A stretch of 64,000 nt of DNA from a virus. Shown here piece after piece: positions 22,374-45,479 of the stretch. The first letter of the stretch is position 1. The number at the start of each line of letters is the position of its first letter. The notes under the pieces are model-generated. The model saw only the letters and a program-made list of their open reading frames with translations, had not been told where the DNA came from and did not search any database. Made by a program: the position numbers and the translations under genes. The DNA lies in IMG/VR virus record IMGVR_UViG_3300034068_000566, positions 1-64,000 of that record. One strand, written 5' to 3'.

Positions 22374-23129
22374 ATGGCTACTTCTAAATCTATGGATTTT
22401 CCTGCTTCAAAATCCTCTAGCTATGCCGATAAAGTAAAGCAAGAAAATGGCCAAGTAGATAATAGTATTTATATTCCAGTTCCTGGACCACAAGGCGAAA
22501 AAGGATATCCAGGAAAAGATGGTTTGCCTGGCCCAGAGGGACCCGCAGGACCAAGAGGTGAACGTGGACTTCAGGGCAAAGACGGAAAAGACGGCAAACC
22601 AGGTCCTCAAGGCCCTAAAGGGGAACCTGGAGAGTTAGATCCAACAACTAATCCATATGCACAACACACTGGTTGGGCTATTTATGATAATTTAAATAAT
22701 AAGGGCCTAAGAATTGGAGCAAATAGAGGAACAGATGGTTGGGTAGATCTTTCAGTTGATGGTTTGGGTTCAAATACAAATGAAGTGTACCTTCCAGGAA
22801 ATAAAATTCCTTTATACAACATAGAATCTCAAAAGCTTAATTTTAAGCATATTAAGCTGGGATCTAGAGTAGACATAACCTATAATCTAAGCATAGAAAC
22901 TCTTAATAATAATACAGAAATATGGCTAAAATCACTCTTCCCAGATGATGACAACAGTATTATAAGTTTTGTAGCTTCTCTAAAATATCAACATACATAC
23001 AATCTATCTACTACTCATAGCTTTGTTATAGATACCGAAAAAGTTAAAAGGCTTGGTATTTCACCACAAATAATGTCAGATTTAGAAGGCACGGCTATCT
23101 TAAACTCTATCTACATTTCAATATCCTAG
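22374..23129 (+). CDS. Collagen triple-helix repeat protein
   Basis: Uninterrupted Gly-X-Y run [10 protein letters not shown]...GEPGE. Confidence 0.8.
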
Positions 23130-26750: not shown

Positions 26751-27176
26751 ATGATTAATGATTTAGACATTACCTATAGCTCTGAAAGAGATAGGTTGAA
26801 AGGTGCTCCATTAACTTTTGTAATTGAGGGGGAATGCCTTTATGACTTTGTAGTTACAGAAGAGGGTGTTGATTTATTTACAAAAAATAAAGGTATGAAT
26901 GATATTTCTAATAATTATCCAGATTATGATGGCATAACTCTTGAGATTATTAAAGAAAACGATGAAATTGAAATATATCAAACTAATGAGTACTTTGGTT
27001 CAATTTTATTAAGCAACCCCACGATAGTAAATGTTATTGATTATCCTTATGGACACTACGTTCTTTCCCCAGAAGCATCTTTTGATGGCGAAAAGTTTAT
27101 TATTAATAATAGACTACTTTCTGAATTAACTGAGTGGCATATTACTAATCCAAACCATCCCAACAATATAAAATAA
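26751..27176 (+). CDS. Hypothetical protein, paralog of 35297..35743
   Basis: Shares GAPL.FVI.GECLY, KENDEIE.YQTNEYFGS.LLSNPT and LTEWHI. Confidence 0.7.
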   Translation: MINDLDITYSSERDRLKGAPLTFVIEGECLYDFVVTEEGVDLFTKNKGMNDISNNYPDYDGITLEIIKENDEIEIYQTNEYFGSILLSNPTIVNVIDYPYGHYVLSPEASFDGEKFIINNRLLSELTEWHITNPNHPNNIK

Positions 27177-27222: not shown

Positions 27223-27771
27223 TTATTCAGGAAACTTTTGCATCCAAGACTTTGTCTTAGGAGTAATTCCCTTCCAGGCAGACCAATTTTTACCACCGTC
27301 TGACATATGAAATGCTATTTTTGCATTTACGACGGGATTTAGAAGGTCTGAGTTAGCATCAAGATTAAACTTATCTCGACGATCAGGACCTAATTGCCCA
27401 ATCATATTAATCTGAAACATACCATAAGAACTGTCTCCAGTCTCAGTGTTTCCATTAAATCTGATTGGTTGACCATTAGACTCTTTTTTGGCTACTGCCC
27501 AAGCCTCCTTTAGATCGTTGCCCCTAAAGCCAACGAGATATAAAAGTTCCTTGAGTTCACCATCGGTTAGAGAACCCTTGTTTTCAAACTTTTGTAATTT
27601 TTTCTCCTTAGAAACACTTAAAGCCTCTTGCGAGGCTGAATCTGCGGATACTACAATTTCCGTACTTAAGTTATTGCGTTCACTAGCATTAGCAACATTT
27701 AAACCTTGTGCTGCCATTACTATAATCGTGAGTATTCCGATGAGTTTTTGTTTATCTTTTGCTATATTCAT
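27223..27771 (-). CDS. Lytic transglycosylase/lysozyme-like protein with an N-terminal signal anchor
   Basis: AVAKKES...SYGMFQIN...N.KIA...W.AW. Confidence 0.8.
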   Translation of the reverse strand: MNIAKDKQKLIGILTIIVMAAQGLNVANASERNNLSTEIVVSADSASQEALSVSKEKKLQKFENKGSLTDGELKELLYLVGFRGNDLKEAWAVAKKESNGQPIRFNGNTETGDSSYGMFQINMIGQLGPDRRDKFNLDANSDLLNPVVNAKIAFHMSDGGKNWSAWKGITPKTKSWMQKFPE

Positions 27772-29548: not shown

Positions 29549-31477
29549 ATGGCAACAGTAAATAAAGATTTTAGAATTAAGCACGGTCTCGTCGTTGAAG
29601 GTTCAACTGCAACAGTTAACGGCAAGAATATTATCACAGCAGGCGTCGTTGATGCTAAGGGTGATTTAATTGTAGGTAGTGCAGATGATGCAGTAGCTCG
29701 TTTAGGCGTTGGCTCAAATGGTCAAGTCCTTACAGCAGCATCAGGTGCAACATACGGAGTTCAGTGGTCTGATCCAGCAGCCGTTGGCATCTTCCAAACA
29801 GAAATTACTTTTGAGGGTTCAACAGCAAATGATTTTGAAACTACTCTTACACTTGTAGATCCAACAGCAGATCGTACAATAACATTTCCAGACGCAACAG
29901 GAACTGTAGCACTTACTTCAGATATTACTACAGCGGTAGATGCAATTACAACAACTGTTATTGAAGAAGGAACAAACCTTTACTTCACAGATGAAAGAGC
30001 ACAAGATGCCATTGGAGACAATGTCGGAACTGGTCTTTCATATAATGATACAACAGGTGCAATATCTGTAACAGCAAATACCTATGATGCATATGGCGCA
30101 GCTGCTTCAGCACAAACTGCTGCAGAATCAACTGCTTCAGGATATGTATCAACACACGCCAACCTAACAGAAGCACATGGCGCAAGTGGTGCGGTAGTTG
30201 GAACAACTAACACACAAACTCTTACAAACAAAACACTTACTTCACCAAAAATTAATGAAGATGTAGTTCTTACATCTACAGCTACAGAGCTTAACGTTCT
30301 TGACGGAATCACAGCCTCTACTGCTGAACTTAACCTTCTTGATGGAGTAACAGCTACAACTGCTGAACTTAACATCCTTGACGGAGTAACTGCTACAGCA
30401 GCAGAGATTAACCTTCTTGATGGAGTGACTGCTACTACAACTGAACTTAACTATGTAGACGGAGTAACTTCAGAAATTCAAGGTCAGATTGACCTAAAGG
30501 CTCCTCTTGCATCACCAGCACTTACTGGAGTACCTACTGCTCCAACTGCAGTAGCAAGTACTGATACAACTCAGATTGCTACAACAGCATTCGTAAAAGC
30601 AGCAGTAGCAGGACTTGTAGATGGTGCACCAGCACTTCTTGACACTCTTAATGAGTTGGCAGCAGCAATTAACGATGATGCTTCATTTGCTACAACACTT
30701 ACTACATCAGTAGGAACAAAGGTTTCAAAGGCTGGCGATACAATGACTGGACTTCTTGTCCTTTCAGCAGATCCATCAGAAAACCTTGGTGCAGCAACAA
30801 AGCAGTACGTTGATACAGCAGAATCAGATGCAAACACTACAGCATCAGGATATGTTTCAACACACTCAGGCCTTACAACTGGTGTTCACGGTGTAGCTGG
30901 TAATGTTGTTGGTACAACTGATACACAAACATTAACAAACAAGACAATTGATGGCGCAAGCAATACTCTTACAGTACGAATTGCAAATGATGTTTCTGGT
31001 CTTGGAACTGGCGTAGCCACATTCCTTGCCACACCATCTTCTTCAAACCTTGCAGCAGCATTAACTGATGAAGCAGGGTCTGGAACAGTAGCATTTACTA
31101 CTAGCCCAACTTTTGTTACACCAACTCTTGGTGCAGCATCTGGTACAAGCCTTGCTCTACCAGATTCTCTTGTTGGATCTTCAACAGGAACTGCTGGAAC
31201 TTCAGCAACTACAGTTGACACATGGTCAGCAACAACTTATTCAAGCGCTAAATACTTAGTTCAGATGAAAAAATCTGGGGATATTGAAACAAGCGAAATT
31301 CTTGTAACAGTAGACGGAGCAAACAATGTATATATTACAGAGTATGCCAATGTAATTAGTAATGCTGCCCTTGGAACAATTACTGCAGCCTATAGCGCTG
31401 GAAATGTTGTTCTTACAGTTGCTGCAACAGCAGCAGATACTTCAGTTAAGTTACACAAGACTTACGTTGAAGCATAA
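29549..31477 (+). CDS. Long tail fibre
   Basis: 14-aa TAELN.LDG.T repeats, NLYFTDERA, SPALTG.PTAPT, LDTLNELAAA. Confidence 0.8.
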   Translation: MATVNKDFRIKHGLVVEGSTATVNGKNIITAGVVDAKGDLIVGSADDAVARLGVGSNGQVLTAASGATYGVQWSDPAAVGIFQTEITFEGSTANDFETTLTLVDPTADRTITFPDATGTVALTSDITTAVDAITTTVIEEGTNLYFTDERAQDAIGDNVGTGLSYNDTTGAISVTANTYDAYGAAASAQTAAESTASGYVSTHANLTEAHGASGAVVGTTNTQTLTNKTLTSPKINEDVVLTSTATELNVLDGITASTAELNLLDGVTATTAELNILDGVTATAAEINLLDGVTATTTELNYVDGVTSEIQGQIDLKAPLASPALTGVPTAPTAVASTDTTQIATTAFVKAAVAGLVDGAPALLDTLNELAAAINDDASFATTLTTSVGTKVSKAGDTMTGLLVLSADPSENLGAATKQYVDTAESDANTTASGYVSTHSGLTTGVHGVAGNVVGTTDTQTLTNKTIDGASNTLTVRIANDVSGLGTGVATFLATPSSSNLAAALTDEAGSGTVAFTTSPTFVTPTLGAASGTSLALPDSLVGSSTGTAGTSATTVDTWSATTYSSAKYLVQMKKSGDIETSEILVTVDGANNVYITEYANVISNAALGTITAAYSAGNVVLTVAATAADTSVKLHKTYVEA

Positions 31478-32017: not shown

Positions 32018-34231
32018 ATGGCAACTAGAATGCAACAGCGCAGAGGAACTGCAGCTCAGTGGATATCTTTAAATGATGGAGATGGCCCAATTCTTGCTGC
32101 TGGCGAAATTGGTTTTGAGAGCGATACTGGTCAGTTTAAGATCGGTAATGGAGTCAGCCATTGGACAGATCTTTCATATTTTAAAGACTTTGGCGATCTA
32201 GGCGGATCATTAGACGACTATATTGAACTTACAGCTAAAGGAGCAGCATCTGGAGTTGCAGAACTCGATGCTACATTTAATGTTTTAACAAAGACTGGCG
32301 TTGTTTTTGAAGGCGCTACAGCAAATGATTTTGAGACAACTTTACAGGTAACAGAGCCAACAGCTGATCGGGCTATCACACTTCCAAATGCTACAGGAAC
32401 AGTTGTTCTTGCAGATGGCAGCGGTAACGTAACAGTATCAGGAGACTTAACAGTATCAGGTACAACTACTATCATTGACAGCACAACAATTAATGTTCAA
32501 AATAACATTAGATTTGAAGGAACAACACCAAATGATTTTGAGACAAGCTTAACAGCAGCAGATCCAACTGCAGACAGAACTATCACACTTCCAGATGCCA
32601 CAGGAACAGTTGTTCTTGAAGATGGAACTCAAACACTATCTAATAAGACAATTAATTTAAATGCAAACACTTTAAACACTACTCTTGCTCAATTAAATAC
32701 AGCAGTATCTGATGCCGATGTTGCTTCACTTGCTGGATCAGAAACATTAACTAATAAAACTTTAACATCTCCAAATGTTAATGAAGCAGTTGCTCTTACA
32801 GCAACATCTACAGAGTTAAATATTCTTGACGGAGCAACCGTAAGTGCTGCAGAACTAAATATTCTTGATGGCGTAACATCTTCAACCGCAGAACTAAATA
32901 TTCTTGACGGTGTTACATCAACAGCTGCAGAATTAAACGTACTTGATGGAATTACTTCATCTACTGCAGAACTAAATATCCTTGACGGAGTAACAGCAAC
33001 CGCAGCACAAATAAATGTTCTTGGAAGCCTAACTGCTACTGCAGCAGAATTAAACATTCTTGACGGTGTTACATCTACTACAGCAGAGATAAACAAACTT
33101 TCTGGAGTAACCGCTACATCGGCTGAAATTAATACTTTGTCTGGAATTACTTCCACTGTTGCAGAATTAAATATTCTAGATGGTGCACTTTTATCTGTAA
33201 CAGAATTAAACTATCTAGATGGTGTTACTTCTGCAATTCAAACACAGATTGATGCTAAAGCAGATACTGCTGCCCCTACATTTACAGGAACAGTTGTTCT
33301 TCCATCTACAACATCAATTGGAACAGTAACCTCAACAGAATTAGGATATATTAGTGGAGTAACCTCAGCAATTCAAACTCAGATATCTGGAAAGCAATCA
33401 GTTGTTGCTAATGTTTCAGATGTTGAGATTGGATATTTAGATGGCGTTACTTCTCCAATTCAAACTCAATTAGGAAATAAGCAAGCAGTTGTTGCCAATG
33501 TTTCAGATACTGAAATAGGATACCTTGATGGAGTTACATCCGCAATTCAGACCCAACTTGACGCTAAACTAGCATCTGCAACAGCAGCATCAACTTATGC
33601 CCCTCTAGTATCTCCAGCACTTACTGGAACACCTACAGCACCATTGGCAGTAACTGGAACTAATACAACGCAGGTTGCTACAACAAGTTTTGTACAGCAA
33701 GAACTTGCCGTATTAACAACTGGCGCACCAGCAGCACTAAATACGCTTGATGAACTGGCAGCAGCCCTAGGTGATGATGCTAACTATGCAGCTACAATTA
33801 CAACAGCACTTGGAAATAAGGCTCCACTTGCCTCTCCTACATTTACAGGAACAGTTACTCTTCCTGCAGCAGGAATTGTATTTACAGATGGCACACAAGC
33901 AAAAGAAGGTGTTCCTTCTCGTACACCAATTATTGCAAAGACAGATTCTTACACACTGTCAGCATTAACTGAAAGAGATTCATTGATTGAAGTTGCAAAA
34001 GCAACAGCAACAACAGTTACAATCCCAACAGATGCAACTCTAAACTTCCCAATTGGAACATCTATTGATATTCTTCAAACTGGAGCGGGACAAGTAACGA
34101 TTGCCCCAGTATCAGGAACAGTTACAGTCAATGCTACACCTGGATTAAAGCTTCGTACAACTTGGTCATCTGCAACTCTTCTTAAAAGAGCAGCAAATAC
34201 TTGGGTTGTATTTGGCGATCTAACAGCGTAA
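32018..34231 (+). CDS. Long tail fibre (Mtd-N-like N-terminus, 14-aa repeats)
   Basis: QRRGTAAQW...LAAGEIGFESDT..FKIG.G; many AELNILDGVT repeats; WVVFGDLTA end. Confidence 0.8.
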   Translation: MATRMQQRRGTAAQWISLNDGDGPILAAGEIGFESDTGQFKIGNGVSHWTDLSYFKDFGDLGGSLDDYIELTAKGAASGVAELDATFNVLTKTGVVFEGATANDFETTLQVTEPTADRAITLPNATGTVVLADGSGNVTVSGDLTVSGTTTIIDSTTINVQNNIRFEGTTPNDFETSLTAADPTADRTITLPDATGTVVLEDGTQTLSNKTINLNANTLNTTLAQLNTAVSDADVASLAGSETLTNKTLTSPNVNEAVALTATSTELNILDGATVSAAELNILDGVTSSTAELNILDGVTSTAAELNVLDGITSSTAELNILDGVTATAAQINVLGSLTATAAELNILDGVTSTTAEINKLSGVTATSAEINTLSGITSTVAELNILDGALLSVTELNYLDGVTSAIQTQIDAKADTAAPTFTGTVVLPSTTSIGTVTSTELGYISGVTSAIQTQISGKQSVVANVSDVEIGYLDGVTSPIQTQLGNKQAVVANVSDTEIGYLDGVTSAIQTQLDAKLASATAASTYAPLVSPALTGTPTAPLAVTGTNTTQVATTSFVQQELAVLTTGAPAALNTLDELAAALGDDANYAATITTALGNKAPLASPTFTGTVTLPAAGIVFTDGTQAKEGVPSRTPIIAKTDSYTLSALTERDSLIEVAKATATTVTIPTDATLNFPIGTSIDILQTGAGQVTIAPVSGTVTVNATPGLKLRTTWSSATLLKRAANTWVVFGDLTA

Positions 34232-34261: not shown

Positions 34262-35248
34262 ATGGCATCAGGTAAAAAAATAGGCAAGAAGTCTCAAGCG
34301 TCAAATGACTTCTTAGAGCCAATGGCTCCTACTGGTGTAACAGCAACAAATGTTGGAACTGGAAGAGCCTTTAATAATGGAGCAGCTACAGTTACATTTT
34401 CTTTGCCTGCACTATCTCCTGCTGCTTCATCATTTACTGTAACCTCATCACCTGGCGGATATACTGGCACTGGAGCATCTTCTCCAATTACAGTAGCTGG
34501 ACTTCAATCTGCCACAGCCTATACATTTACCGCAACAGCTACTAATGCTGCAGGAACATCTGTAGCCTCTTCTGCTTCAGCTTCTATTACCGCAACAACA
34601 GTTCCAGCAACTATGTCTGCTCCAACCCCAACTGCTGGAGTTAATCAAAACTCAATTGCTTTTTCAGCACCAGCAACTGGTGGATCTACAATTACAGGAT
34701 TTACCGTAACAGGCTCTGATGGTACATCTGGAACTGGAGCATCTTCTCCAATTGTTATTGCAGACACTGGTGGAACTTCTCAGACATATACAGTTAGGGC
34801 AACTAATGCTAACGGTACTGGTTCAGCTTCATCTGCATCTGGATCTATTACCACTACCCCGCCATTTTTCCCACCATTCTTCCCACCTTTCTTCCCGTTC
34901 TTCCCACCATTCTTCCCTCCGTTCTTCCCTCCGTTCTTCCCACCATTCTTCCCATTCTTCCCGTTCTTCCCACCATTCTTCCCTCCGTTCTTCCCACCTT
35001 TCTTCCCACCATTCTTCCCATTCTTCCCACCATTCTTCCCACCTTTCTTCCCTCCATTCTTCCCACCGTTCTTCCCATTCTTCCCATTCTTCCCATTCTT
35101 CCCACCATTCTTCCCACCTTTCTTCCCACCTTCATTCCCATTCTTCCCTCCATTCTTCACAGCACCTTCTTGCCACACTTGCAATGGCTCTGATGCCTAC
35201 TGGGGCTACTATGGCTGTGGTTACCCAGGAGAAGTTGTTTGCAACTAA
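34262..35248 (+). CDS. Two Fn3 domains + 100-residue (PPFF/PFF)n tract + Cys-rich tail
   Basis: APTGVTAT...GLQSATAYTFT..ATNAAG (Fn3); Pro/Phe tract; CHTC...C...C. Confidence 0.8.
   Translation: MASGKKIGKKSQASNDFLEPMAPTGVTATNVGTGRAFNNGAATVTFSLPALSPAASSFTVTSSPGGYTGTGASSPITVAGLQSATAYTFTATATNAAGTSVASSASASITATTVPATMSAPTPTAGVNQNSIAFSAPATGGSTITGFTVTGSDGTSGTGASSPIVIADTGGTSQTYTVRATNANGTGSASSASGSITTTPPFFPPFFPPFFPFFPPFFPPFFPPFFPPFFPFFPFFPPFFPPFFPPFFPPFFPFFPPFFPPFFPPFFPPFFPFFPFFPFFPPFFPPFFPPSFPFFPPFFTAPSCHTCNGSDAYWGYYGCGYPGEVVCN
34858..35158 (+). repeat. Pyrimidine-rich coding repeat (CCN CCN TTC TTC)n
   Basis: 18 PPFF, 8 PFF and 1 PPSF units. Confidence 0.95.
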
Positions 35249-35296
35249 GCAGATATCAATGATTATGATATACTTGTATAAAGAAAAGGAGAACTA

Positions 35297-35743
35297 ATGA
35301 TTAAAGATATTGATATTCAACATAGTTTTAGTAGAGATAAGTTAGCAGGAGCACCATTAGTATTTGTTATTGATGGGGAGTGTCTTTATAATTTTAATGC
35401 AACACTTCCTGGCATTGACCTATTTACAAAAAATAAAGGCATTACAGATATATCTGCTGACTACCCAGAGCACGATGGGGCTACACTTCAAATTGTTAAA
35501 GAAAATGATGAAATTGAAGTCTATCAAACTAACGAATACTTTGGTTCAGTTTTACTAAGCAATCCAACAGTTCTTGATTTAAATGATTATCCTTATGGAC
35601 ATCATGTTATGTCTCCAGATGCCTCATTTGATGGAGAAAAGTTTATTATTAAAAATAAAACGGTTGCTGAACATGTACGATTAACGGAATGGCATATTCA
35701 CAATCCTAAAAATCCAAATTATGTACCCCATCCAAACGTTTAA
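35297..35743 (+). CDS. Hypothetical protein, paralog of 26751
   Basis: High identity to 26751..27176. Confidence 0.7.
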   Translation: MIKDIDIQHSFSRDKLAGAPLVFVIDGECLYNFNATLPGIDLFTKNKGITDISADYPEHDGATLQIVKENDEIEVYQTNEYFGSVLLSNPTVLDLNDYPYGHHVMSPDASFDGEKFIIKNKTVAEHVRLTEWHIHNPKNPNYVPHPNV

Positions 35744-35779
35744 TTTTTTTATTATATAATTACAACAAAGGAGTTTGTT

Positions 35780-36013
35780 TTGTCAGAAAAAAGCGCATGG
35801 GAAAAATATAAAGAAAAAAATGGGGTAACTCCACTAGATATGCTTAATCCACATACAAAGCGTATACCACATGAATCTGCTCAAAAAAGATTTGATATTT
35901 GTAAGGAGTGTCCAGAATTAATAAAACTTACTTCTCAGTGTAAAAAATGTGGTTGTTTCATGAAAGTTAAGACTACTCTTGAGATTGCTAAATGCCCACT
36001 AAATAAGTGGTAA
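35780..36013 (+). CDS. Small Cys-rich protein (DUF6171-like)
   Basis: RFDICKECP...QCKKCGCFM..K......CP..KW. Confidence 0.6.
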   Translation: MSEKSAWEKYKEKNGVTPLDMLNPHTKRIPHESAQKRFDICKECPELIKLTSQCKKCGCFMKVKTTLEIAKCPLNKW

Positions 36014-36086
36014 CACTCGCTATATATTGCTTTAAATAGCACTTTTATGCTATAATAAAACTATACCATTAAAAGATAGGAATCAC

Positions 36087-36806
36087 ATGCAAGCATATGA
36101 TGAAAACGATAATCACTGGTTTACTAAAGATAGATCAGAAACAGCCTCAACAAGAATTTCCCGATTGATGCCTCAAAGTAATATCCCGATTAGCAATCCA
36201 GGATTAGGTTTAAATATTTATCATAATGTTTTTTCAAAAGATGATTCAGATAGATATATCAATACTCTTGAGCACAATCTTTCAGGGGATAATAAGTATA
36301 AGTGGTCTGAAGCACAGGTAACAAACTCTACTGTTCCAATCAAAAAAGCAAGAGATGCTGTAGACTTTAAATATAAGCAAGAAAATCTTGGTCCAAGAGA
36401 TGAACATAATGCTGATCTGATTGATTTGCATGAAGAGATATATCAAAAACTAAAATTGTGCATAGATGATTATGCACACTACTGGGGAATAAATGTTACA
36501 TATTATGAAGCATTTAACTTTGTAAAGTATGAAGGTGAAGGAACTCACTTTAATATACATGCTGATCATGGTCCAGCTTATAATTGTACTGTTTCTGCAG
36601 TAATTTATATTAATGATGATTACGAAGGTGGAGAAATTAAGTTTCCAAGATTAGATAATTTTGTTCATACCCCAAAGGTTGGAGATATAGCAATCTTTCC
36701 TTCAAACTATATATATGAGCATGCTTCTTTGCCAATGAAAACAGGAACAAAATATTGTGTTGTCATTATGACAGACATTAATCTTTTAGGTCACACAGGA
36801 AATTAA
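36087..36806 (+). CDS. 2OG-Fe(II) oxygenase
   Basis: HADH...YINDDYEGGEI.F...FPSN..Y.H...KY. Confidence 0.9.
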   Translation: MQAYDENDNHWFTKDRSETASTRISRLMPQSNIPISNPGLGLNIYHNVFSKDDSDRYINTLEHNLSGDNKYKWSEAQVTNSTVPIKKARDAVDFKYKQENLGPRDEHNADLIDLHEEIYQKLKLCIDDYAHYWGINVTYYEAFNFVKYEGEGTHFNIHADHGPAYNCTVSAVIYINDDYEGGEIKFPRLDNFVHTPKVGDIAIFPSNYIYEHASLPMKTGTKYCVVIMTDINLLGHTGN

Positions 36807-36819
36807 CATAGGAGAAAAT

Positions 36820-37491
36820 ATGAATACAGAAAATACAACATCAGCACCTTGGAGCAGCTATGAAGAGATTGCTCCAGGAATTTTTGTTTACCACGACGTT
36901 CTGCCAACAGAATTAAACATTATTGATAGGCTGGAAGAGGTTTTGAATAATGACAGACCAAACTATAATTGGCAACCAGCCTATGTTGGTTATCAACAAA
37001 GAATGCCAGAGTATAGAGATTGCGTTGATTTTAAATTTAAGAAAACAGACATTGAAAGAGATGTATCTCCAGACTCCTTAAAACTTCAGGGCATTTGGCA
37101 AGACTGTTATGATAGACAAAAGTTAGCAGTAGAAGATTACTGCAGACGCTTTAATATTAATAACCTAAGATACTGGGAAGCTTTTAATTACATTAAGTAT
37201 GAGCCTGGTCAACACTTTATGGAACATCATGATCATGGATTTTCATATAACTGTACATTGTCTCTAGTTGCTTATATTAATGATAATTTTGAAGGCGGAG
37301 AATTATTCTTTAGACTTCAAGGAATTACGTATATTCCAAAAGCTGGGGATGTTGTATTGTTCCCATCTAACTTTATGTATCCACATCAAGCTAAGGTTGT
37401 TCATTCTGGGACAAAGTATTCTTTAGTAACAATGCTTGACTATAGCGATAAGTATCACACTCCAGAGATGTATCAAGAGACTGGATCATAA
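36820..37491 (+). CDS. 2OG-Fe(II) oxygenase
   Basis: HHDH...YIND.FEGGEL.F...FPSN..YPH...KY. Confidence 0.9.
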   Translation: MNTENTTSAPWSSYEEIAPGIFVYHDVLPTELNIIDRLEEVLNNDRPNYNWQPAYVGYQQRMPEYRDCVDFKFKKTDIERDVSPDSLKLQGIWQDCYDRQKLAVEDYCRRFNINNLRYWEAFNYIKYEPGQHFMEHHDHGFSYNCTLSLVAYINDNFEGGELFFRLQGITYIPKAGDVVLFPSNFMYPHQAKVVHSGTKYSLVTMLDYSDKYHTPEMYQETGS

Positions 37492-38204
37492 TGTCAATTA
37501 TCACTGCTTATAGAAAAACACCAATGGCATTGAATATAGAGCCAATGTCTATAAAAAGAGATTGGATGGATGAAACTCCACAGGGTCATGCCTATAGATG
37601 TCATCCAGTCACATCTGCCAATGTTATTGGCTGGAGTATATCTTCACCAGTAGACATAAAGTTCATCTGGAATGGTGTTAATGATACAAGCGGAGATAAT
37701 GTTACTATACTTGAAGGAAAAGAGTATGTTTATACTGGAAGAGGACAGTCAACAGTTAGTTTTAATACTGGATTTATTTTAAGAACAGATGAAAAAACTA
37801 GCGTATTGACAATAACTCCACAAAACTATTTTAATGAAGATGTTGAGGTTATGTCCTCTCTCATATCTACTTCTTTTTTAAATACAGATTTTCCCTTAGC
37901 AATTAAATGCAAGGTAGCAAATAAAGAAATTACTATTAAGGCAGGTTCACCCATAGCAACCATAATTCCTATCTCTTTAACTTCTTTAAAAGATGAGTCT
38001 GTAGAGATAGTCAACTTTGTACACACACAAGAATATTCTGATGCTTTAAACTCATATGGTAAAGCAGCTCAAGAAGTAAACCAGAGTGGAGAGTGGACTG
38101 ACTGGTATAGAAATGCTGTAAATGAAAAAGGCGAGTCTATTGGATCACACGAAGTTAAAAATTTAAAATTAAACGTTATTGATAATACAGGAGGCAAACA
38201 GTGA
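37491..38204 (+). CDS. DUF6065-like protein
   Basis: RDWMD.T...HAYRC.P...AN..GW motif. Confidence 0.65.
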   Translation: MSIITAYRKTPMALNIEPMSIKRDWMDETPQGHAYRCHPVTSANVIGWSISSPVDIKFIWNGVNDTSGDNVTILEGKEYVYTGRGQSTVSFNTGFILRTDEKTSVLTITPQNYFNEDVEVMSSLISTSFLNTDFPLAIKCKVANKEITIKAGSPIATIIPISLTSLKDESVEIVNFVHTQEYSDALNSYGKAAQEVNQSGEWTDWYRNAVNEKGESIGSHEVKNLKLNVIDNTGGKQ

Positions 38205-38926
38205 AGATCATTGAGTTTATAACTAATAGGCCTTGGCTAAATAAAGATAGTAAATCAAAGCCAATACCAATTTCAAGATCAATGCCACAGTGGTATAAAG
38301 AAGCTGATAGGTTTGCTAAAAAACCAGATGGAGAATATTGGATAGGACCAGACAAAGGAAAGATCCCTACATGGAAAGCCTGTCCTGCAATTCTTGATAT
38401 TTTAACAACTGGGTATAGCCTTGTAACCCCCTGTGATATAGAATTTTTCCTTGATGGCGCAGGGCAAATTGATGTTAAAACTGAAGATCCAATGTATAAA
38501 GATTTTGCTACAAGAAGAACTCCCATGCCACAATTTCGTCATCCAGAAGGATATTATAATTATCACTTTGCATGGATGCCAGATTGGGCAGTAAAGGTTC
38601 CAGATGGCTATAGCGTTTTATATGTTGCTCCATTTAATAGATACGATCTTCCAATTATGACAGTTTCTGGAATTATTGATAATGACAAAGTTAACTTGCC
38701 TGGATCTTTTCCATTTTTTGTACAAAAAGGTTGGACTGGAGTTCTTCCAGCAGGAACTCCTTATGCTCAGTTGCTTCCATTTTTGAGGGAAGATTGGAAA
38801 TCCGAAATAACTGTTCCAACTGCTTCTGAAATGATGAATCATAATATAGAAAATAGTAAAAAATATCGTGTCCCAGATGGCGGAGTTTATCAAAAAGAAG
38901 TCTGGACTAAGAGATTCTACGAATAG
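38201..38926 (+). CDS. Hypothetical protein distantly related to DUF6065 (possible dUTPase-like beta fold)
   Basis: P.WYK...T.K.CP...D....GY...P.D...W....P.GYS...SGIID.D...GTP.AQ..PF.R. Confidence 0.5.
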   Translation: MKIIEFITNRPWLNKDSKSKPIPISRSMPQWYKEADRFAKKPDGEYWIGPDKGKIPTWKACPAILDILTTGYSLVTPCDIEFFLDGAGQIDVKTEDPMYKDFATRRTPMPQFRHPEGYYNYHFAWMPDWAVKVPDGYSVLYVAPFNRYDLPIMTVSGIIDNDKVNLPGSFPFFVQKGWTGVLPAGTPYAQLLPFLREDWKSEITVPTASEMMNHNIENSKKYRVPDGGVYQKEVWTKRFYE

Positions 38927-38944
38927 GAAATGGTATAATAAAAC

Positions 38945-39625
38945 ATGAAACAAAATAACGAGTCGTACACAGTAGTTAAAAGAACACCATCTATAACTCC
39001 ATCTGGTTGGTTTGGAGATAGCAAAGACATGATTGTCGAGCTAGAAAATTTTATGACCCCAGAAGAGATTGAGTTTTTAGAAAAAGCTGCTAAGTCTTTG
39101 ACAATTTGGGATGTAACTGAAAGCCATATGAATGAAAATGGGACTGTTACATATGACTCAAACTATTGGAAAGACAGAGTTGCTACTAGCCCAACATTAA
39201 ATAAAAATGATCCAACCATCGCACCAGTAATTGCTGGATTATTTCAAAGATTAAAACCAATTGTTGAAGAATTTTATAAGGTAGAAGTCGTTCCAACTGG
39301 AACAACTATTGTTAAATGGCTTCCTGGACAATTTCAAAAACCTCATGCGGATAAAGAGTTACATGAAGGTCCTGATGCTGGAACTCCTAATGACTTTCCA
39401 AATTATGACCTATCTAGTCTATTTTATTTAAATGATGACTATGAGGGTGGAGAATTATACTTTCCTATACAAGGTGTACAGTTTAAGCCTAAAAAAGGAG
39501 CTGCATACTTCTTCCCAGGAGATAAAAACTATATTCATGGAGTTACTGAAATCAAAAGTGGCCTAAGATTTACATGTCCATTTTTTTGGGAAATTACTAA
39601 GCATACAGGAGATAGGCAACCATAA
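38945..39625 (+). CDS. 2OG-Fe(II) oxygenase
   Basis: HAD...YLNDDYEGGELYF...HGV...R. Confidence 0.9.
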   Translation: MKQNNESYTVVKRTPSITPSGWFGDSKDMIVELENFMTPEEIEFLEKAAKSLTIWDVTESHMNENGTVTYDSNYWKDRVATSPTLNKNDPTIAPVIAGLFQRLKPIVEEFYKVEVVPTGTTIVKWLPGQFQKPHADKELHEGPDAGTPNDFPNYDLSSLFYLNDDYEGGELYFPIQGVQFKPKKGAAYFFPGDKNYIHGVTEIKSGLRFTCPFFWEITKHTGDRQP

Positions 39626-40512
39626 TGACATATCCTTGGCCAAACAATAATAAACTTGAGTCAATAGAAATATATCCAAATATTGTTGTGTACAAAAATC
39701 TTTTTAAAGATATTGAAAAATCTTATAAAATTTTAACAGATTCTTTATCAGAAACAGAAGATGGTTTGTTTAATCCTTGGACCACTTGGTCTGTTTTTGG
39801 GGAATACTTAAATCCAATAACTCCTCAATTTTCAATGAATGATAGATATGGAAATATGAAAGATGTAGAAACATCAACAGAAACGCAAGAAAATCATAAA
39901 AACTTTGTAATTGAAATGATGGACAATTTTTATTTAGCTACAGAAGACTATATCAAGAGCCATAATTTAGACGTAGATTTAGATGCAATGTCTATAAATG
40001 ATGATGGGAATCCTATTCCAACATGGAGATGGGCTGGTGGAACTATAGGTAAATATCATGTAAGTAATGAAGACAGTAGAGTTGGAATGAACTATCATTC
40101 AGACTATATAAGAGAGCAAGGTCATACCCCAGGTTATAAGTTTGTAATAACATCTACAATATATTTTAATGATAACTATGAGGGTGGAGAAATTGATTTT
40201 GCAATGGGAGACAAGCTTGTAAAGTATAAACCAGAAGCAGGAGATGTTTTAGTTTTTCCATCAGGGCACCCAGACTATCTGACAGAAGAAGGAAAACCAT
40301 ATTTACATGGAGTTATGCCATCATATAAAAATAATAAGTTTTTGTCAAGAATGTATTGGCAAAAATATCAAAAAGGAACTGATGATTGGTATGAAAAAGA
40401 AAAAGAGTTTGGAAAAGATGTTTGGGCGGAAATGCAAAAAGATTTAGACGAACAGTTTAGACTAAAGCACCCGCAAAGAGCTGTAATAGAAAATGGAGTA
40501 AGAATACAATGA
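39625..40512 (+). CDS. 2OG-Fe(II) oxygenase
   Basis: HSD...YFNDNYEGGEI.F...HGV...K. Confidence 0.85.
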   Translation: MTYPWPNNNKLESIEIYPNIVVYKNLFKDIEKSYKILTDSLSETEDGLFNPWTTWSVFGEYLNPITPQFSMNDRYGNMKDVETSTETQENHKNFVIEMMDNFYLATEDYIKSHNLDVDLDAMSINDDGNPIPTWRWAGGTIGKYHVSNEDSRVGMNYHSDYIREQGHTPGYKFVITSTIYFNDNYEGGEIDFAMGDKLVKYKPEAGDVLVFPSGHPDYLTEEGKPYLHGVMPSYKNNKFLSRMYWQKYQKGTDDWYEKEKEFGKDVWAEMQKDLDEQFRLKHPQRAVIENGVRIQ

Positions 40513-41267
40513 ACCTAGAGAATAAAGTTAGGCTAACAAAAGACATAGTTGTTTATAAAAATTTTATAAGCAAAGAGGATTGTCAAAAGATGATTCAAGC
40601 ATTAGATGCTCAGGCAGATAATGGTGCACTCTCTTGGATGCCTATTTCATTTTATGAATCATACTCTTCTGTCCTTCCACAAGACAATGATCAAGAGTTG
40701 CTTGATGCTGAACTATCTCCAACTATTTTTTCAGACATTGAAAAAACAATGCCAGAGGCAATTGCTTCAGTTCATGACTTAGATCCAAAGACAATTTCTA
40801 AGATTGGATACCATACACAAAAGTGGGAGCCAGGAGCATACGCAAGAATTCACTCTGATAATACAGATGCTCAAGGAAATTCAGGAGCATTTACAAGAAG
40901 TCGTTATGCAGGGTTCCTATATCTAAACGATGACTTTGAAGGGGGACTGCTTAAGTTTCCAAGTCATAACATAGAGATTAAACCAGAAGTTGGAATGCTT
41001 GCTGTTTTTGACGGGGGATTTAGCAACATGCACGAAGTCTCCCTAATAGAAAGTGGAGTAAGATATACCATTGGATCTTTTTGGGATGACAGAGAAGAAG
41101 ATGCTTACCCACAAGAATTAAGAGATGCCTGGGCTGCAGAAATGAAAGAGACTAGAGCAAAACAAGAAATTGAAAGAGCCGAATGGCAAGATCTTTTAAA
41201 AGAAGGATGGAAGTTGGATGCTGCTGGAAATAAATATAAGGTAGAAGATTTAGGGAATAATGTCTAA
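40509..41267 (+). CDS. 2OG-Fe(II) oxygenase
   Basis: HSD...YLNDDFEGG.L.F...HEV...RY. Confidence 0.9.
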   Translation: MNLENKVRLTKDIVVYKNFISKEDCQKMIQALDAQADNGALSWMPISFYESYSSVLPQDNDQELLDAELSPTIFSDIEKTMPEAIASVHDLDPKTISKIGYHTQKWEPGAYARIHSDNTDAQGNSGAFTRSRYAGFLYLNDDFEGGLLKFPSHNIEIKPEVGMLAVFDGGFSNMHEVSLIESGVRYTIGSFWDDREEDAYPQELRDAWAAEMKETRAKQEIERAEWQDLLKEGWKLDAAGNKYKVEDLGNNV

Positions 41268-41919
41268 TTTTCTAACAAGCATACTAAAAGAAAATAATTT
41301 TCAGGTTGAAGAAGTTACTGATGATATTGTTTTAGTTAAAGATTTTTTTTCTAAAGATGATCTAGATCAAGTTTTTAATATTATAGACTCAACTCCAAAT
41401 GAAGAGTGGTTTATAGAATATCATGCTAACTTAAAAAACTTTTGTATGCAAAAATTTGGCAGAGATGATGTTGATAATTTAGTTGCAGAAGGTAAATTTG
41501 AAATAACTCAAAACTGGCAAGATAAAAATTTAAATATAGGACAACACCCATTTCAAAAAACCTTGTTCGATAGACTAAATAATTTAGTTCAAAATGTTGA
41601 CAACACAATAGAGTTAAGTGGTTTTGCAACTATTCAAAGGATGCAAGAGGGTGTCGAGTTAAAAGCTCACACAGATCAAGATACAGATCCATCGATTAGG
41701 TACGCTGCCATTCTGTATTTAAATAATGATTATGTTGACGGAGAGTTGTTTTTTCCAAACAATGGCTTAGAGTTTAAGCCTGATCCTGGGTCAATGCTTA
41801 TTTTTCCAGGCACAGCAGAATATAATCATGGAGTAAAGCATGTAGGTCCAGGACCAATTAGATATGTTTTGGTTGGATTTATTAAGGTTAAAAATTTTTA
41901 TGATAACAATAAATACTAA
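41260..41919 (+). CDS. 2OG-Fe(II) oxygenase
   Basis: HTD...YLN.DY..GEL.F...HGV...RY. Confidence 0.9.
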   Translation: MSNFLTSILKENNFQVEEVTDDIVLVKDFFSKDDLDQVFNIIDSTPNEEWFIEYHANLKNFCMQKFGRDDVDNLVAEGKFEITQNWQDKNLNIGQHPFQKTLFDRLNNLVQNVDNTIELSGFATIQRMQEGVELKAHTDQDTDPSIRYAAILYLNNDYVDGELFFPNNGLEFKPDPGSMLIFPGTAEYNHGVKHVGPGPIRYVLVGFIKVKNFYDNNKY

Positions 41920-41930
41920 AGGAGAAATAA

Positions 41931-42662
41931 ATGAATAAAGAACTACTAGACCCAAAGGTATACTATTATACTGACGCAATTGAAAATTTTGACAAATTTA
42001 AACAAGTTTGGAAAGAGTTAGACACTCTTGAGCAATATGATGAGTTAGGGGTAAATGTTTGGAACCCTTGGACATCTTCTAACGATAAAACTTTTATCTA
42101 CGGAGAAACAAAAACTTTTGATGCTAATGCAATAAGCAATCTTAGTGGAGATGTAGCAGAAAAAAGTAAATATATTTATGATGCCGTTATGACTACAATG
42201 TATAATGTTTGTAAAGACTATGCATCCTCTATGGGAGACTTTGATGAGCCAAGACTTTTTCCAACATTTAACATAAAAAAGTACAATACTGGAATGGCTA
42301 TGGGGGCGCACTTTGATCAACTCGATGGCGATAAGACATTGAGATATTCTTTGGTAATGTATTTAAACGATGACTGTGAAGGCGGAGAAATTTCTTTTCA
42401 GTTAAAGGACTATGATGGTGGATGGACTAGCTCAGAAGGTTGGGTAAGTGGCGCACCAGCAGTAGAGTTAGACTATGATCTTGCAGTTGCAAACAAAGCT
42501 ATTAGTTTTGGTGTAAAACCTAAAGAAAATAGCGTTGTAATATTTCCAGCATATGCTCCATATTTTCACACGGCACACACAGTTAAGTCTGGCGTAAAGT
42601 ATATGATTCCTGGACATTGGATCCATAACAATATGGAGCTTAATCAAAGCCAGAGCATGTAA
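41931..42662 (+). CDS. 2OG-Fe(II) oxygenase
   Basis: HFD...YLNDDCEGGEI.F...H.A...KY. Confidence 0.9.
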   Translation: MNKELLDPKVYYYTDAIENFDKFKQVWKELDTLEQYDELGVNVWNPWTSSNDKTFIYGETKTFDANAISNLSGDVAEKSKYIYDAVMTTMYNVCKDYASSMGDFDEPRLFPTFNIKKYNTGMAMGAHFDQLDGDKTLRYSLVMYLNDDCEGGEISFQLKDYDGGWTSSEGWVSGAPAVELDYDLAVANKAISFGVKPKENSVVIFPAYAPYFHTAHTVKSGVKYMIPGHWIHNNMELNQSQSM

Positions 42663-43331
42663 TTGAAAACAGCAATTGTAACTGGAGCAAGTAAGGGTGT
42701 TGGATTAGCAACAGTTAAGCGCTTGTCTGAAAATGGGTATAAAGTAATTGCTGTTTCAAGAAACCTTTCAAAAGTCTCTGAACTAATATCTGATAATGTT
42801 GAGGTATATAATCTAGACATTACAGACTCTAAAGCAATAGAAGTGTTCTTTGAAAAATACAAAGACATTACTTTAGACCTTTTAGTTAATAATGCTGGAG
42901 GAGGGTCAGGCCCAACTCATATTATTAATGAGACTCCAGAAAACTTTAGAAAAGCTTATGATATAAATGTAACTGGCCCTATGTACCTATCTCAACTATT
43001 TGCTCCATGTATGGAAAAGTCAGAGTCTCCAACAATTATCTTTATTACTTCTTTTGGAGGAAAGGTACCATATCGTGGTGGAGGAAACTATACAAATGCG
43101 AAGAGAGGTGAACGTGGTCTTATTGATACAATGAGACTTGAGTTTCCTCAATTTGGGATTAAGATTACAGAAATCTGTCCAGCAACTATTGATACCCAAG
43201 AACAAAAACGGGATCAAGCATTAACCGCAGAAGATTTAGCAGAAGCAATTTACTGGGTAGGATCATTACCAAGTCATGTTAATATAAATGAAATTGAAAT
43301 CTGTCATATTCACAGCAGCAAGTATGGTTAA
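42663..43331 (+). CDS. Short-chain dehydrogenase/reductase
   Basis: TGASKGVG, NNAG and YTNAK (YxxxK). Confidence 0.9.
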   Translation: MKTAIVTGASKGVGLATVKRLSENGYKVIAVSRNLSKVSELISDNVEVYNLDITDSKAIEVFFEKYKDITLDLLVNNAGGGSGPTHIINETPENFRKAYDINVTGPMYLSQLFAPCMEKSESPTIIFITSFGGKVPYRGGGNYTNAKRGERGLIDTMRLEFPQFGIKITEICPATIDTQEQKRDQALTAEDLAEAIYWVGSLPSHVNINEIEICHIHSSKYG

Positions 43332-43493: not shown

Positions 43494-45479
43494 ATGTCAG
43501 ATGTTTTTTCATTTCGTTTATCAGAGGATTTTGTAACAAAATATAGTAATACTCCAGCACCGTTTGGATTTGCAGATGCGGGGGAAAACTCTTTAGGAGA
43601 AATTACTTTTATTCGTACCTATTCTCGTGTAAAAGAAGACGGAACAAAAGAACGTTGGCACGAAGTTTGTCGTCGTGTTATTGAAGGCATGTATTCAGTT
43701 CAAAAAAATCATGCTAAAGATAATCGTCTAGGCTGGAATGACAATAAAGCTCAGAAGTCTGCACAAGAAGCATTCCAAAGAATGTTTGAATTAAAGTGGA
43801 CCCCTCCAGGTCGTGGTATGTGGACATTTGGAACAGCCATGACTATGGAAAAGAAAAACTCAGCAGCGCTACAAAACTGTGCAATGGTTTCTACAAAAGA
43901 CCTTGACAAGAATGATCCAGGGGCTTTGTTTGCTTGGGTTATGGATGCCTTAATGCTTGGTATTGGTGTAGGGTTTGACACAATAGGACAAGAGAAGAAT
44001 TTTTCTATTTATGCTCCAACAGAACCAGCAGTTATCTTTGAAATTCCAGATACTCGTGAGGGCTGGGTAGAATCAGTACGTATACTATTAAACTCTTACC
44101 TAAGATCAAATCAACCTATCCAAAAGTTTAATTATGACCTTATCAGACCTCTAGGAGCACCAATTAAGGGCTTTGGAGGGGTCGCTAGCGGTCCAGCACC
44201 ACTCATTGCATTACACGATAAGATCAATCATGTCATAGGCTCTAGAGCAGGGGAAATCCTAGATTCTCGTGCTATTACAGACATCGTCAACCTTATTGGA
44301 ACATGTGTTGTTTCAGGAAATGTCCGTCGTTCTGCAACCTTAGCTTTAGGTGCTCCAGGAGATGAAGATTTTATTAATTTAAAAAACCCAGAAGTATTCC
44401 CAGAACGTAACTCCTATGATTCAGATAATCCAGGATGGGCATGGATGTCTAATAATTCTATTGCAGCAACAGTTGGAATGGATTATGAAAAATATACAGA
44501 TTTAATTGTAAACAATGGAGAGCCAGGTTTTATTTGGCTTGATGTTGCTCGTAACTATGGTCGTCTTGCAGATCCAGCGGATGGAAAAGACTATCGTGTT
44601 ATGGGCTTTAATCCTTGTGCGGAGCAGCCATTAGAATCATACGAACTTTGTACACTTGTAGAAGTGCACTTAAACCGTCATGATTCCAAGACTGTAACTC
44701 TTCTTCCAACACATTGGCAGCAAACAAACGGTATTATGCAACGCAACCGTCGTATTGGTACATCTCTTACTGGTATTGCATCATTTGCAGATCAAAATGG
44801 ATTACCAATTGTTCGTGAATGGATGGACGAAGGTTATAACAAGATACGTTATTATGATAAAAAATATTCAGAGTGGTTGTGTGTTCGTGAATCAATTCGT
44901 GTAACAACTGTTAAGCCATCTGGATCAGTTTCAATTCTTTCTGGTGCAACCCCTGGGGTTCACTGGGGACCTGGAGGAAACTTCTTCCTTCGTGCTATTC
45001 GTTTTGGAAACACAGATCCAATGCTTCATTTGTTTAAAGCAGCAGGGTATAAAATTGAAGACGATCTAGTATCAGCAAACACATCAGTAGTTTATTTCCC
45101 AGTTAAATCAGGTCATCCAAGATCTGAAAAGGATGTAACCCTGTTTGAAAAGATAAACCTTGCTGCAACAGCTCAAAAGTATTGGTCTGACAATGGAGTA
45201 TCTGTAACTCTATCCTTTGATAAGGAGACAGAGTCAAAGCATGTTCCAACAGTTTTGCATATGTACGAGGGACAACTAAAGGCAGTATCATTCCTTCCAA
45301 TGGGAAATCATACTTATCCACAACAGCCATATACTCAGATCACAGAAGAAGAATATGATTACTATGTTGGTCGTATCGGTCATATTGATTTCTCTGCTAT
45401 TTATGACGGGGTAGATAATCTTGAGGCACTTGGCGAAAGCTATTGCACTACAGACTACTGTGAGATTAAAATTAAATAG
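43494..45479 (+). CDS. nrdJ: Class II (adenosylcobalamin) ribonucleoside-triphosphate reductase
   Basis: F.RTYSR, PPGRG.W, LQNC, NPCAEQPL..ELC.L, TTVKPSG and C-terminal CTTDYC. Confidence 0.9.
   Translation: MSDVFSFRLSEDFVTKYSNTPAPFGFADAGENSLGEITFIRTYSRVKEDGTKERWHEVCRRVIEGMYSVQKNHAKDNRLGWNDNKAQKSAQEAFQRMFELKWTPPGRGMWTFGTAMTMEKKNSAALQNCAMVSTKDLDKNDPGALFAWVMDALMLGIGVGFDTIGQEKNFSIYAPTEPAVIFEIPDTREGWVESVRILLNSYLRSNQPIQKFNYDLIRPLGAPIKGFGGVASGPAPLIALHDKINHVIGSRAGEILDSRAITDIVNLIGTCVVSGNVRRSATLALGAPGDEDFINLKNPEVFPERNSYDSDNPGWAWMSNNSIAATVGMDYEKYTDLIVNNGEPGFIWLDVARNYGRLADPADGKDYRVMGFNPCAEQPLESYELCTLVEVHLNRHDSKTVTLLPTHWQQTNGIMQRNRRIGTSLTGIASFADQNGLPIVREWMDEGYNKIRYYDKKYSEWLCVRESIRVTTVKPSGSVSILSGATPGVHWGPGGNFFLRAIRFGNTDPMLHLFKAAGYKIEDDLVSANTSVVYFPVKSGHPRSEKDVTLFEKINLAATAQKYWSDNGVSVTLSFDKETESKHVPTVLHMYEGQLKAVSFLPMGNHTYPQQPYTQITEEEYDYYVGRIGHIDFSAIYDGVDNLEALGESYCTTDYCEIKIK

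Follow-up and report, generated by a model that had tools for sequence, protein, structure and literature searches.

A Pro/Phe-tract gene linked to an array of prolyl-hydroxylase-like oxygenases in an uncultured phage lineage: a candidate fibre-maturation module

Results

A tract gene heads a co-directional oxygenase array

The DNA analysed here (the window) comprises the first 64 kb, 64,000 nucleotides, of the IMG/VR virus record IMGVR_UViG_3300034068_000566, a linear record of 95,289 bp that CheckV rates as 88% complete. We concentrate on a block at 34262-43331, in which the gene of PF1, a protein with a long proline/phenylalanine tract, is followed by genes for seven oxygenases (Ox1 to Ox7) that resemble prolyl 4-hydroxylase (P4H). 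Between 29.5 and 43.3 kb the order on the plus strand is TF1, a gene of 150 aa, TF2, PF1, h148, DUF6171, Ox1, Ox2, DUF6065a, DUF6065b, Ox3 to Ox7 and a short-chain dehydrogenase/reductase (SDR) (Table 1). Between Ox1 and the SDR, neighbouring genes either overlap or are separated by 1-19 nt, all on the strand that also carries the structural genes, and consensus scans between PF1 and the array gave no excess of promoter-like sites and no convincing terminator. A sequence-only reading of this DNA had proposed that the cluster modifies Pro/Phe tracts and collagen fibres after translation, and every gene on which it drew in the block is present at its place.

Table 1. Features of the block and related features of the window
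Feature	Positions	Strand	Description	Evidence
PF1	34262-35248	+	Fn3-repeat protein with (P)PFF tract and 29-aa, 4-Cys C-terminal end; candidate substrate	ORF/translation, Pfam
(P)PFF tract	34859-35158	+	aa 200-299 of PF1	53 F, 46 P, 1 S
h148	35297-35743	+	small protein, candidate fibre-specific helper	
DUF6171	35780-36013	+	zinc-ribbon-like Cys-rich mini-protein, 77 aa, CxxC...CxxC	PF19668 29.8 bits, phrog_13558
Ox1	36087-36806	+	P4H-like 2-oxoglutarate (2OG)-Fe(II) oxygenase	PF13640 E 2.3e-10
Ox2	36820-37491	+	P4H-like oxygenase	PF13640 E 3.7e-12
DUF6065a	37491-38204	+	lacks the Asp-containing motif kept in DUF6065b	PF19541 E 2.4e-32
DUF6065b	38201-38926	+	predicted dUTPase-fold protein with conserved Cys	phrog_7084
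Ox3	38945-39625	+	P4H-like oxygenase	PF13640; best PDB match P3H1 E 6e-5, PBCV-1 P4H 3e-3
Ox4	39625-40512	+	P4H-like oxygenase, variably present in relatives	PF13640
Ox5	40509-41267	+	P4H-like oxygenase	PF13640
Ox6	41260-41919	+	P4H-like oxygenase	PF13640
Ox7	41931-42662	+	P4H-like oxygenase with ~30-aa insert	PF13640
SDR	42663-43331	+	classical SDR closing the array	PF00106 E 1.4e-40, 139 bits; TGxxxGxG and YxxxK readable in the translation
PF2	25301-26722	+	second tract protein, three short PF tracts (PPFFPFFPPFFPPYF and APFFPPYF repeats), Cys-containing end	
h141	26751-27176	+	paralogue of h148, directly 3' of PF2	67% identical to h148
Eighth oxygenase	18993-19583	-	P4H-like oxygenase outside the array	PF13640 25.7-27.4 bits, borderline
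Collagen-like fibre protein	22374-23129	+	Gly-X-Y x17; another possible substrate	
TF1	29549-31477	+	fibre gene	
TF2	32018-34231	+	tail-fibre protein (Mtd_N), directly 5' of PF1; context only	
Ribonucleotide reductase	43494-45479	+	class II, directly 3' of the array; context only	

The (P)PFF tract is kept while the rest of PF1 diverges

PF1 has 328 aa, with an Fn3 domain at aa 40-106 (Pfam 25.8 bits, cut-off 25). The tract of 100 residues made almost only of Pro and Phe, as described from the letters alone, is indeed there and consists of 18 PPFF, 8 PFF and 1 PPSF units. Neither the Ser-Pro3-5 repeat of extensins nor the Gly-X-Y repeat of collagens occurs in this tract, whose repeat type is PPFF/PFF only. 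At the DNA level it is an imperfect 12-nt repeat of 27 copies with 81% matches (Tandem Repeats Finder). Its Pro codons vary synonymously, as had been claimed, among three codons (CCA 29, CCT 10, CCG 7); to this we add a strong Phe bias, with 52 TTC and 1 TTT in the tract compared with 53 TTC and 250 TTT in 17 other genes of the window. CCG, which accounts for 7 of the 46 Pro codons of the tract, is rare elsewhere (5 of 297). The codon bias possibly reflects avoidance of T-runs and slippage, or homogenisation of the repeat.

Protein-level selection on the tract is better shown by its persistence. PF1 orthologues follow the TF2 gene in more than 100 related IMG/VR contigs, and across these the Fn3 part drifts to 40-50% identity whereas the (P)PFF tract is kept at variable length. 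When IMG/VR was scanned with a degenerate DNA pattern for PFFPPFFPFFP, at least 119 stretches were found, and nearly all of the loci fetched carry homologues of the fibre or array genes of this lineage. The same pattern matched 15 contigs in 185,579 prokaryotic species genomes: a few lake contigs from metagenome-assembled genomes (MAGs) have several matches each, and the remaining contigs have a single match, possibly by chance. The multi-copy contigs (L287, L290, L296, L297 and L299) sit in MAGs named Luteolibacter, Bacteroidetes, Beijerinckiaceae, Acidimicrobiaceae and Chitinophagaceae. Given this discordant taxonomy they are most simply mis-binned phage contigs, and they point to no host and no cellular counterpart. 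On these sequence comparisons selection acts on the tract, which is confined to one phage lineage.

Beyond the tract, PF1 orthologues carry either a variable Cys-rich end or, in some, a Hint/intein-like domain; such a domain stands behind the tract instead of the Cys-rich end in the relatives L020 (1087-2274), L043 (3020-4381) and L205 (4003-5733). Since the Hint domain starts with Cys and ends in SHN followed by Lys, cleavage or thioester transfer seems possible, and splicing does not. The exchange of ends suggests that the tract is processed or attached at its C-terminus.

The oxygenases are old, divergent and intact

All seven array oxygenases match PF13640 above its cut-off of 27 bits (33-47 bits), and the HxD...H triad is invariant in all eight oxygenases of the window, so that both the seven intact triads and the eighth enzyme elsewhere, which keeps its triad, were rightly called by the sequence-only reading. 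About 10 residues past the distal His all eight have a Lys or Arg; we used a basic residue at this place as the criterion for a binder of the 2OG C5 carboxylate. Triad and basic residue are also invariant within the orthologue sets examined (H158, D160, H212 and K222 among Ox1 orthologues). The solved structures that the profiles of Ox1 to Ox3 match best are the P4H of B. anthracis (about 1e-5; for Ox1 the best match, at E 1.5e-5), P3H1 (6e-5), LH3, mimivirus L230, the P4H of PBCV-1 and PiuC. None of the array genes exceeds an NCBIfam cut-off except in generic SDR models; the oxygenases have weak matches there to hydroxylases of the PiuC/YbiX type, and Ox5 one weak, sub-threshold match to the YhhC peptide oxygenase. 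The matches to solved structures support placing the oxygenases in the peptidyl Pro/Lys hydroxylase branch. These matches are remote, so they support the enzyme class and not the substrate.

Identity is 18-39% between paralogues and 60-90% between orthologues from different members of the lineage. This combination of divergent paralogues and conserved orthologues implies that each oxygenase is old and individually kept by selection. The sequence-only reading had also considered a maturation like that of ribosomally synthesised and post-translationally modified peptides (RiPPs). By RiPP criteria, the candidate substrate here is a protein of 328 aa with folded Fn3 domains, and no protease, RRE-type or cyclase family is found among the matches.

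Tract gene and array are linked throughout the lineage

With DUF6065b as the seed, we found 80 IMG/VR loci whose genes stand in the order seen here. Seeding from the array side, all 39 loci with at least 4 kb of upstream sequence carry a tract gene that ends no more than 4 kb before the first oxygenase (median about 530 bp). Seeding from the tract side, 87 tract genes among the pattern matches listed have at least 3 kb of downstream sequence, and for 79 of them a P4H-like gene begins inside those 3 kb and on the same strand. Five pattern-match records had an atypical tract context; four of them carry 6-13 PF13640 genes and the fifth, a 26%-complete fragment, carries none. Of five more pattern-match records, one has 13 oxygenase genes and four small fragments have none. 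Tract gene and array are inseparable in this lineage, which bears out the co-occurrence across phage contigs that had been put forward as a check. Since all loci belong to one lineage with conserved synteny, these counts do not represent independent events; they show a stable unit and not independent co-evolution.

Relatives pair Pro-rich fibre genes with a glycosyltransferase

In relatives a second arrangement recurs, in which a Pro-rich fibre protein is followed by DUF6171, a small P4H-like oxygenase, often h189, and a PF11397 glycosyltransferase (L and G numbers denote loci and genomes). The cassette lies at the position of PF2, and in G015 at a third genome position. Its fibre proteins have tracts of PF, (PT)n, (APTPV)n or (TPPAPTP)n and have a Cys-rich end or a Hint domain. 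PF2 is followed by DUF6171, a small oxygenase, h189 and the glycosyltransferase in L122, L205-L213 and L187; (PT)n or (APTPV)n fibre proteins precede the same cassette genes in L215-L240 and L253-L257; and L152 additionally carries a GT2 glycosyltransferase and a sugar epimerase. DUF6171 is sometimes fused to the next enzyme. The minimal form is found in G015 (L301-L304, about 19.6-25.7 kb), with a (TP)n fibre protein of 1106 aa, one DUF6171, one P4H-like oxygenase and one glycosyltransferase; no DUF6065 was seen in its 76.7 kb. We had considered G015/L256 as an independent lineage and rejected this, as G015 shares replication and tail modules and is a relative.

PF11397 is, as we take it, the family of Gnt1, the GlcNAc-transferase for the hydroxyproline (Hyp) of Skp1, and we refer to it below as GT60. 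Gnt1 (CAZy GT60) glycosylates Skp1 solely on the Hyp that the P4H PhyA has made, and the family also holds a Thr-directed mucin GlcNAc-transferase (PMC6939170). Behind PF tracts without Ser or Thr (L205-L213), Hyp would be the only plausible acceptor for GT60. The GT60 profile itself found no informative solved relative. The cassette of the relatives matches what priming for glycosylation, a part of the sequence-only reading, predicts; the 95-kb record of the phage in hand (88% complete) has no PF11397/GT60 match.

PF2, h148 and DUF6171

PF2 contains two near-identical modules of about 80 aa, each ending in APFFPPYF repeats. At its N-terminus a PASTA-like segment scores 21.4 bits, below the cut-off; this match, if real, would point to peptidoglycan binding and a Gram-positive host. 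Because a paralogue of h148 follows PF2 (Table 1), a tract protein plus candidate helper is a duplicated unit. Genes of the h148 type are sparse, with 14 matches in about 280 loci, and h148 has no family match in Pfam or PHROG. Its AlphaFold2 (AF2) model is mediocre (pLDDT 68) and gave weak fold matches to a fibre of cyanophage Pam3 (Z 5.4) and to the Mu fibre-chaperone complex (Z 3.3); a fold-based identity was dropped, as matches with Z no higher than 5.4 are too weak. In the neighbourhoods of relatives, DUF6171 is the gene most tightly linked to Pro-rich fibre genes, and in one relative it is fused to GT60 (L098:915-2129).

The DUF6065 proteins

Both genes that had been called DUF6065-like are so, the first by Pfam and the second by phrog_7084 and alignment: DUF6065b matches this PHROG at E 1.7e-33 and DUF6065a at 4.6e-9, and the two align, with no Pfam match for DUF6065b. 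A search for near-length homologues with DUF6065a returned close relatives only. The AF2 model of DUF6065b has a pLDDT of 84, and its top 22 structural neighbours are all dUTPases or dCTP deaminases (Z 9.5-5.5), after which scores drop. The model thus predicts a dUTPase/dCTP-deaminase jelly-roll fold. In the family alignment the Cys of DUF6065b is invariant, and only proteins of the b type, not those of the a type, have a GIIDxD stretch, which resembles dUTPase motif III. PF00692 (dUTPase) has no match in the genome up to E 1, and no canonical dUTPase was found. As neither the five dUTPase motifs nor a PF00692 match is present, we did not file DUF6065b as a dUTPase.

DUF6065 lies directly before or next to GT60 in L242-248, L252, L258, L261 and L263, and a profile search found a natural GT60::DUF6065 fusion (P0140), which is not present in IMG/VR. 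A DUF6065b homologue of a halovirus lies beside thymidylate synthase and DNA polymerase. On the strength of the GT60 fusion and adjacencies, together with the missing PF00692 match, we place DUF6065 in a protein-modification pathway.

Genome context and host

The ribonucleotide reductase (RNR; class II, B12-type) lies between the fibre/oxygenase block and the head genes, an odd site for a gene of nucleotide metabolism, and it keeps this position throughout the lineage. Behind the RNR come a protein of 1237 aa and then portal, protease and major capsid protein. The tail region holds a single ORF of 3654 aa, which runs from 58915 past 64000 to 69879 of the record and presumably encodes a tape-measure or giant tail protein, and after it an ORF of 1533 aa with no Pfam match. 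On the minus strand, an ORF of 182 aa (27223-27771) has a hydrophobic N-terminus and, by eye, a lytic-transglycosylase-like motif; it sits where relatives hold a conserved reverse-strand gene of about 200 aa after the GT60 cassette. Two FkbM-like enzymes and a JmjC protein had been named as possible partners of the array. One FkbM-like gene (18350-19012) and the JmjC gene (385-948, far from the array) have sub-threshold Pfam matches only, the latter to cupin/JmjC, and a second FkbM-like gene was not identified.

The portal is about 46% identical to portals of large Streptomyces siphophages. In 50,697 cultured-phage records, the matches were this portal (46%, Streptomyces phages), DUF6065b (25-29%, haloviruses) and Ox2 (about 30%, cyanomyoviruses), while megablast of the block 34262-43331 and tblastn of PF1 and DUF6065a found no match. 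The record is best explained as an uncultured freshwater siphovirus-like phage, for which an actinobacterial host is plausible; a WhiB match, as a clue to the host, was sub-threshold only and does not fix it.

Discussion

Comparison with known systems

Virus-encoded P4H together with viral Pro-rich repeats is already known, as are phage dioxygenase arrays. In the literature searched we found no description of the (P)PFF tract, and searches on PPFF with phage and on DUF6065 returned nothing. The nearest precedent for the pairing is PBCV-1, whose P4H and viral Pro-rich repeats were described by Eriksson et al. 1999, as cited in PMC7019647. Like PBCV-1, the present virus encodes a P4H-type 2OG oxygenase and Pro-rich-repeat proteins, and the PDB entry 5c5t matches Ox3 at E 3e-3. 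By contrast, the present virus is a bacterial one, whose seven or eight divergent paralogues form an operon immediately next to the gene of the repeat. That repeat reads (P)PFF instead of (PAPK)n; DUF6065, DUF6171 and an SDR are added, and the similarity is remote.

The closest precedent for the array is in cyanophages, where tandem dioxygenase arrays were read as tailoring enzymes of secondary metabolites (Iyer, Abhiman, de Souza, Aravind 2010; PMC2938197). The array of Syn9 (gp41-gp54) likewise has many divergent 2OG-Fe(II) dioxygenases in tandem and a DUF6065-type protein, gp43 (profile E 4e-15), and is co-directional, just after genes for tail fibres and fibre assembly (L285, 32.9-43.1 kb). 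The marks of a Syn9-type array, namely at least five divergent 2OG dioxygenases in tandem and a Cys-bearing dUTPase-fold protein, are found in our block as well, while the tryptophan halogenases and the JmjC/MINA member of the Syn9 type are missing among the Pfam matches of its array genes. Syn9 belongs to another lineage, being a T4-like myovirus. Several of its array dioxygenases are annotated as 'DNA endonuclease V', 'minor coat protein' or 'ferrochelatase', which look like annotation errors.

Three further systems act on proteins. The Skp1 Hyp-glycosylation pathway of Dictyostelium and Toxoplasma (PMC6939170) pairs the P4H PhyA with Gnt1, and in the relatives P4H-like and GT60-type genes likewise adjoin, behind a Pro-rich protein; this genome differs in having no GT60, its substrate would be long structural repeats and not one Pro of Skp1, and the enzymes are remotely related. 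Mimivirus L230 (PDB 6ax6) is a virus-encoded collagen lysyl hydroxylase/glucosyltransferase that acts on the virus's own repetitive fibres. 6ax6 is among our PDB matches and a collagen-like gene is present (Table 1), whereas the enzymes here are separate and single-domain, with no fused glycosyltransferase. Finally, mycobacteriophage virions are O-glycosylated by phage glycosyltransferases (Freeman et al. 2023, going by its citation in PMC12801897), so that there, too, a virus of the actinophage type acts on proteins of its virion with enzymes that it encodes itself; according to that citation, the C-termini of capsid and tail-tube proteins are glycosylated directly, without an oxygenase step. 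A P4H-like protein has been detected in a cyanophage virion proteome (PMC12801897).

Weighing the explanations

We favour the reading that the array matures the phage's own Pro-rich virion fibres by hydroxylation, with GT60 glycosylation added in relatives, and regard it as about evenly balanced between right and wrong. It argues from gene content, catalytic residues, fold, conservation and linkage towards a substrate, a reaction and a location in the virion. Enzyme class and linkage speak for the cluster acting on Pro-rich fibres, as the sequence-only reading had it. A number of points weigh against it. This genome lacks GT60, and all co-occurrence comes from one phage lineage with fixed synteny. 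The assignment of PF1 as a virion protein comes from its position. The PDB matches of the oxygenases are weak (E about 1e-5), seven or eight divergent old oxygenases exceed the apparent need of a two-residue Pro/Phe repeat, and the nearest homologues in cultured phages are cyanomyovirus oxygenases of uncharacterised function (PMC9602691). No hydroxyproline was reportedly detected in PBCV-1 particles (ref. 162 in PMC7019647). No Pro-rich tract was found among the neighbouring Syn9 proteins, and neither was a DUF6171 or an SDR. The sequence-only reading had held that arrays occurring apart from PPFF or collagen genes would refute it, and the Syn9 array, with no Pro-rich neighbour, is in part such a case. 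The remaining two points are the dUTPase/dCTP-deaminase fold of DUF6065b (Z up to 9.5), with its motif III-like GIIDxD, and the RNR after the array.

These last two would fit an island for nucleotides or DNA. In it DUF6065 would clear or bind a pyrimidine (deoxy)nucleotide, and a base or sugar would be the target of the oxygenases and SDR, in concert with the adjoining RNR. The halovirus homologue beside thymidylate synthase and DNA polymerase, the lack of a canonical dUTPase in the genome, and sub-threshold Tet_JBP matches of Ox3, Ox2 and Ox6 point the same way. Nevertheless, PF00692 has no match at all, DUF6065a is without the Asp motif, P4H-type models give the oxygenases far better scores than TET/JBP or AlkB-type models do, and no thymidylate-synthase-like or base-transfer gene is among the proteins scanned. 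Because DUF6065 is fused to or repeatedly adjoins GT60 and not DNA enzymes, we downgraded this explanation and hold it to be very improbable. Improbable too, to a slightly lesser degree, is that the oxygenases modify host proteins (translation factors, ribosomal or cell-envelope proteins) in the manner of bacterial PHD/EF-Tu or Ofd1/Tpa1-type enzymes. PF13640 includes such enzymes, and PiuC appears among both the PDB matches and, with YbiX, the weak NCBIfam matches; this leaves unexplained the strict adjacency to tract genes, the pairing of DUF6171 and GT60 behind Pro-rich fibre proteins, and the site inside the late structural block.

The explanation that the cyanophage literature would suggest is a Syn9-type island that tailors a small metabolite, peptide-derived or other; alternatively, the genes would be auxiliary metabolic genes directed at the host, which consume 2OG or hydroxylate host metabolites or proteins. 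The site beside the fibre genes would then merely tolerate insertions, and the tract protein would be an unrelated fibre component. Iyer et al. 2010 proposed synthesis of secondary metabolites for the tandem dioxygenases and the Cys-bearing dUTPase-fold protein of Syn9 (PMC2938197), Sullivan et al. 2010 proposed roles in 2OG/nitrogen stress or DNA repair, and among cultured phages the closest homologues are found in cyanophages, where they carry the annotation of auxiliary metabolic genes. Syn9 gp43 is a DUF6065 homologue with no Pro-rich protein nearby, Ox4 and other members come and go among relatives, and the RNR, a non-structural gene, lies in the same block. On the other side, the block holds no halogenase, non-ribosomal peptide synthetase, ATP-grasp, transporter or precursor-peptide gene, tract gene and array are strictly linked whichever of the two is the seed, and in the minimal cassettes only one oxygenase accompanies a Pro-rich fibre protein and a GT60 of the polypeptide type. 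In Syn9, too, the array comes directly behind fibre genes, and a role directed at fibres would fit there as well. We consider the metabolite or host-directed explanation, the main rival of the favoured reading, unlikely on the whole.

A model of fibre maturation

According to the favoured reading, the block 34262-43331 would be a fibre-maturation module. PF1, PF2 and perhaps the collagen-like fibres would be made late, together with the tail fibres, and the seven P4H-like oxygenases, co-directional with the fibre genes, would be translationally coupled. The reaction would be a hydroxylation of prolines, and possibly of further side chains, in Pro-rich and presumably polyproline-II-type tracts, with the DUF6171 protein and h148 as candidate substrate-side helpers. 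In related phages, the GT60 next to the oxygenase would add a sugar to the new hydroxyl. With the GT60 step lost or never present in this phage, its products would be hydroxylated, perhaps oxidised by the SDR, and not glycosylated by GT60. The DUF6065 pair may act in the same pathway, where a handling of uridine nucleotides would be our guess.

A bolder version of this model strikes us as doubtful. Here the old paralogues would divide the labour, each hydroxylating its own site in the repeat (4-Hyp, 3-Hyp or beta-hydroxy-Phe, for instance), and would give a bacterial virus an extensin-like, heavily oxidised polyproline-II rod, Hyp-glycosylated in relatives. The DUF6065 proteins would be new uridine-nucleotide-dependent partners of protein glycosylation or hydroxylation, and the dioxygenase arrays of aquatic phages would be fibre-maturation systems.

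Implications

That aquatic phages carry P4H-like genes in multiple copies has been on record since about 2007-2010, and these genes are still called uninvestigated (PMC3037559, PMC2938197, PMC9602691). The present lineage offers a defined Pro/Phe candidate substrate directly beside the enzymes, and its relatives add a GT60 family that acts on hydroxyproline in protists. If the favoured reading were refuted, the tract protein would be a lineage-specific, strongly selected low-complexity fibre element. If it is true, this would be the first case of a bacteriophage appendage matured through hydroxyproline; DUF6065, DUF6171 and some of the dioxygenases of phages would gain a function, and a new repeat chemistry would be added for rigid protein rods.

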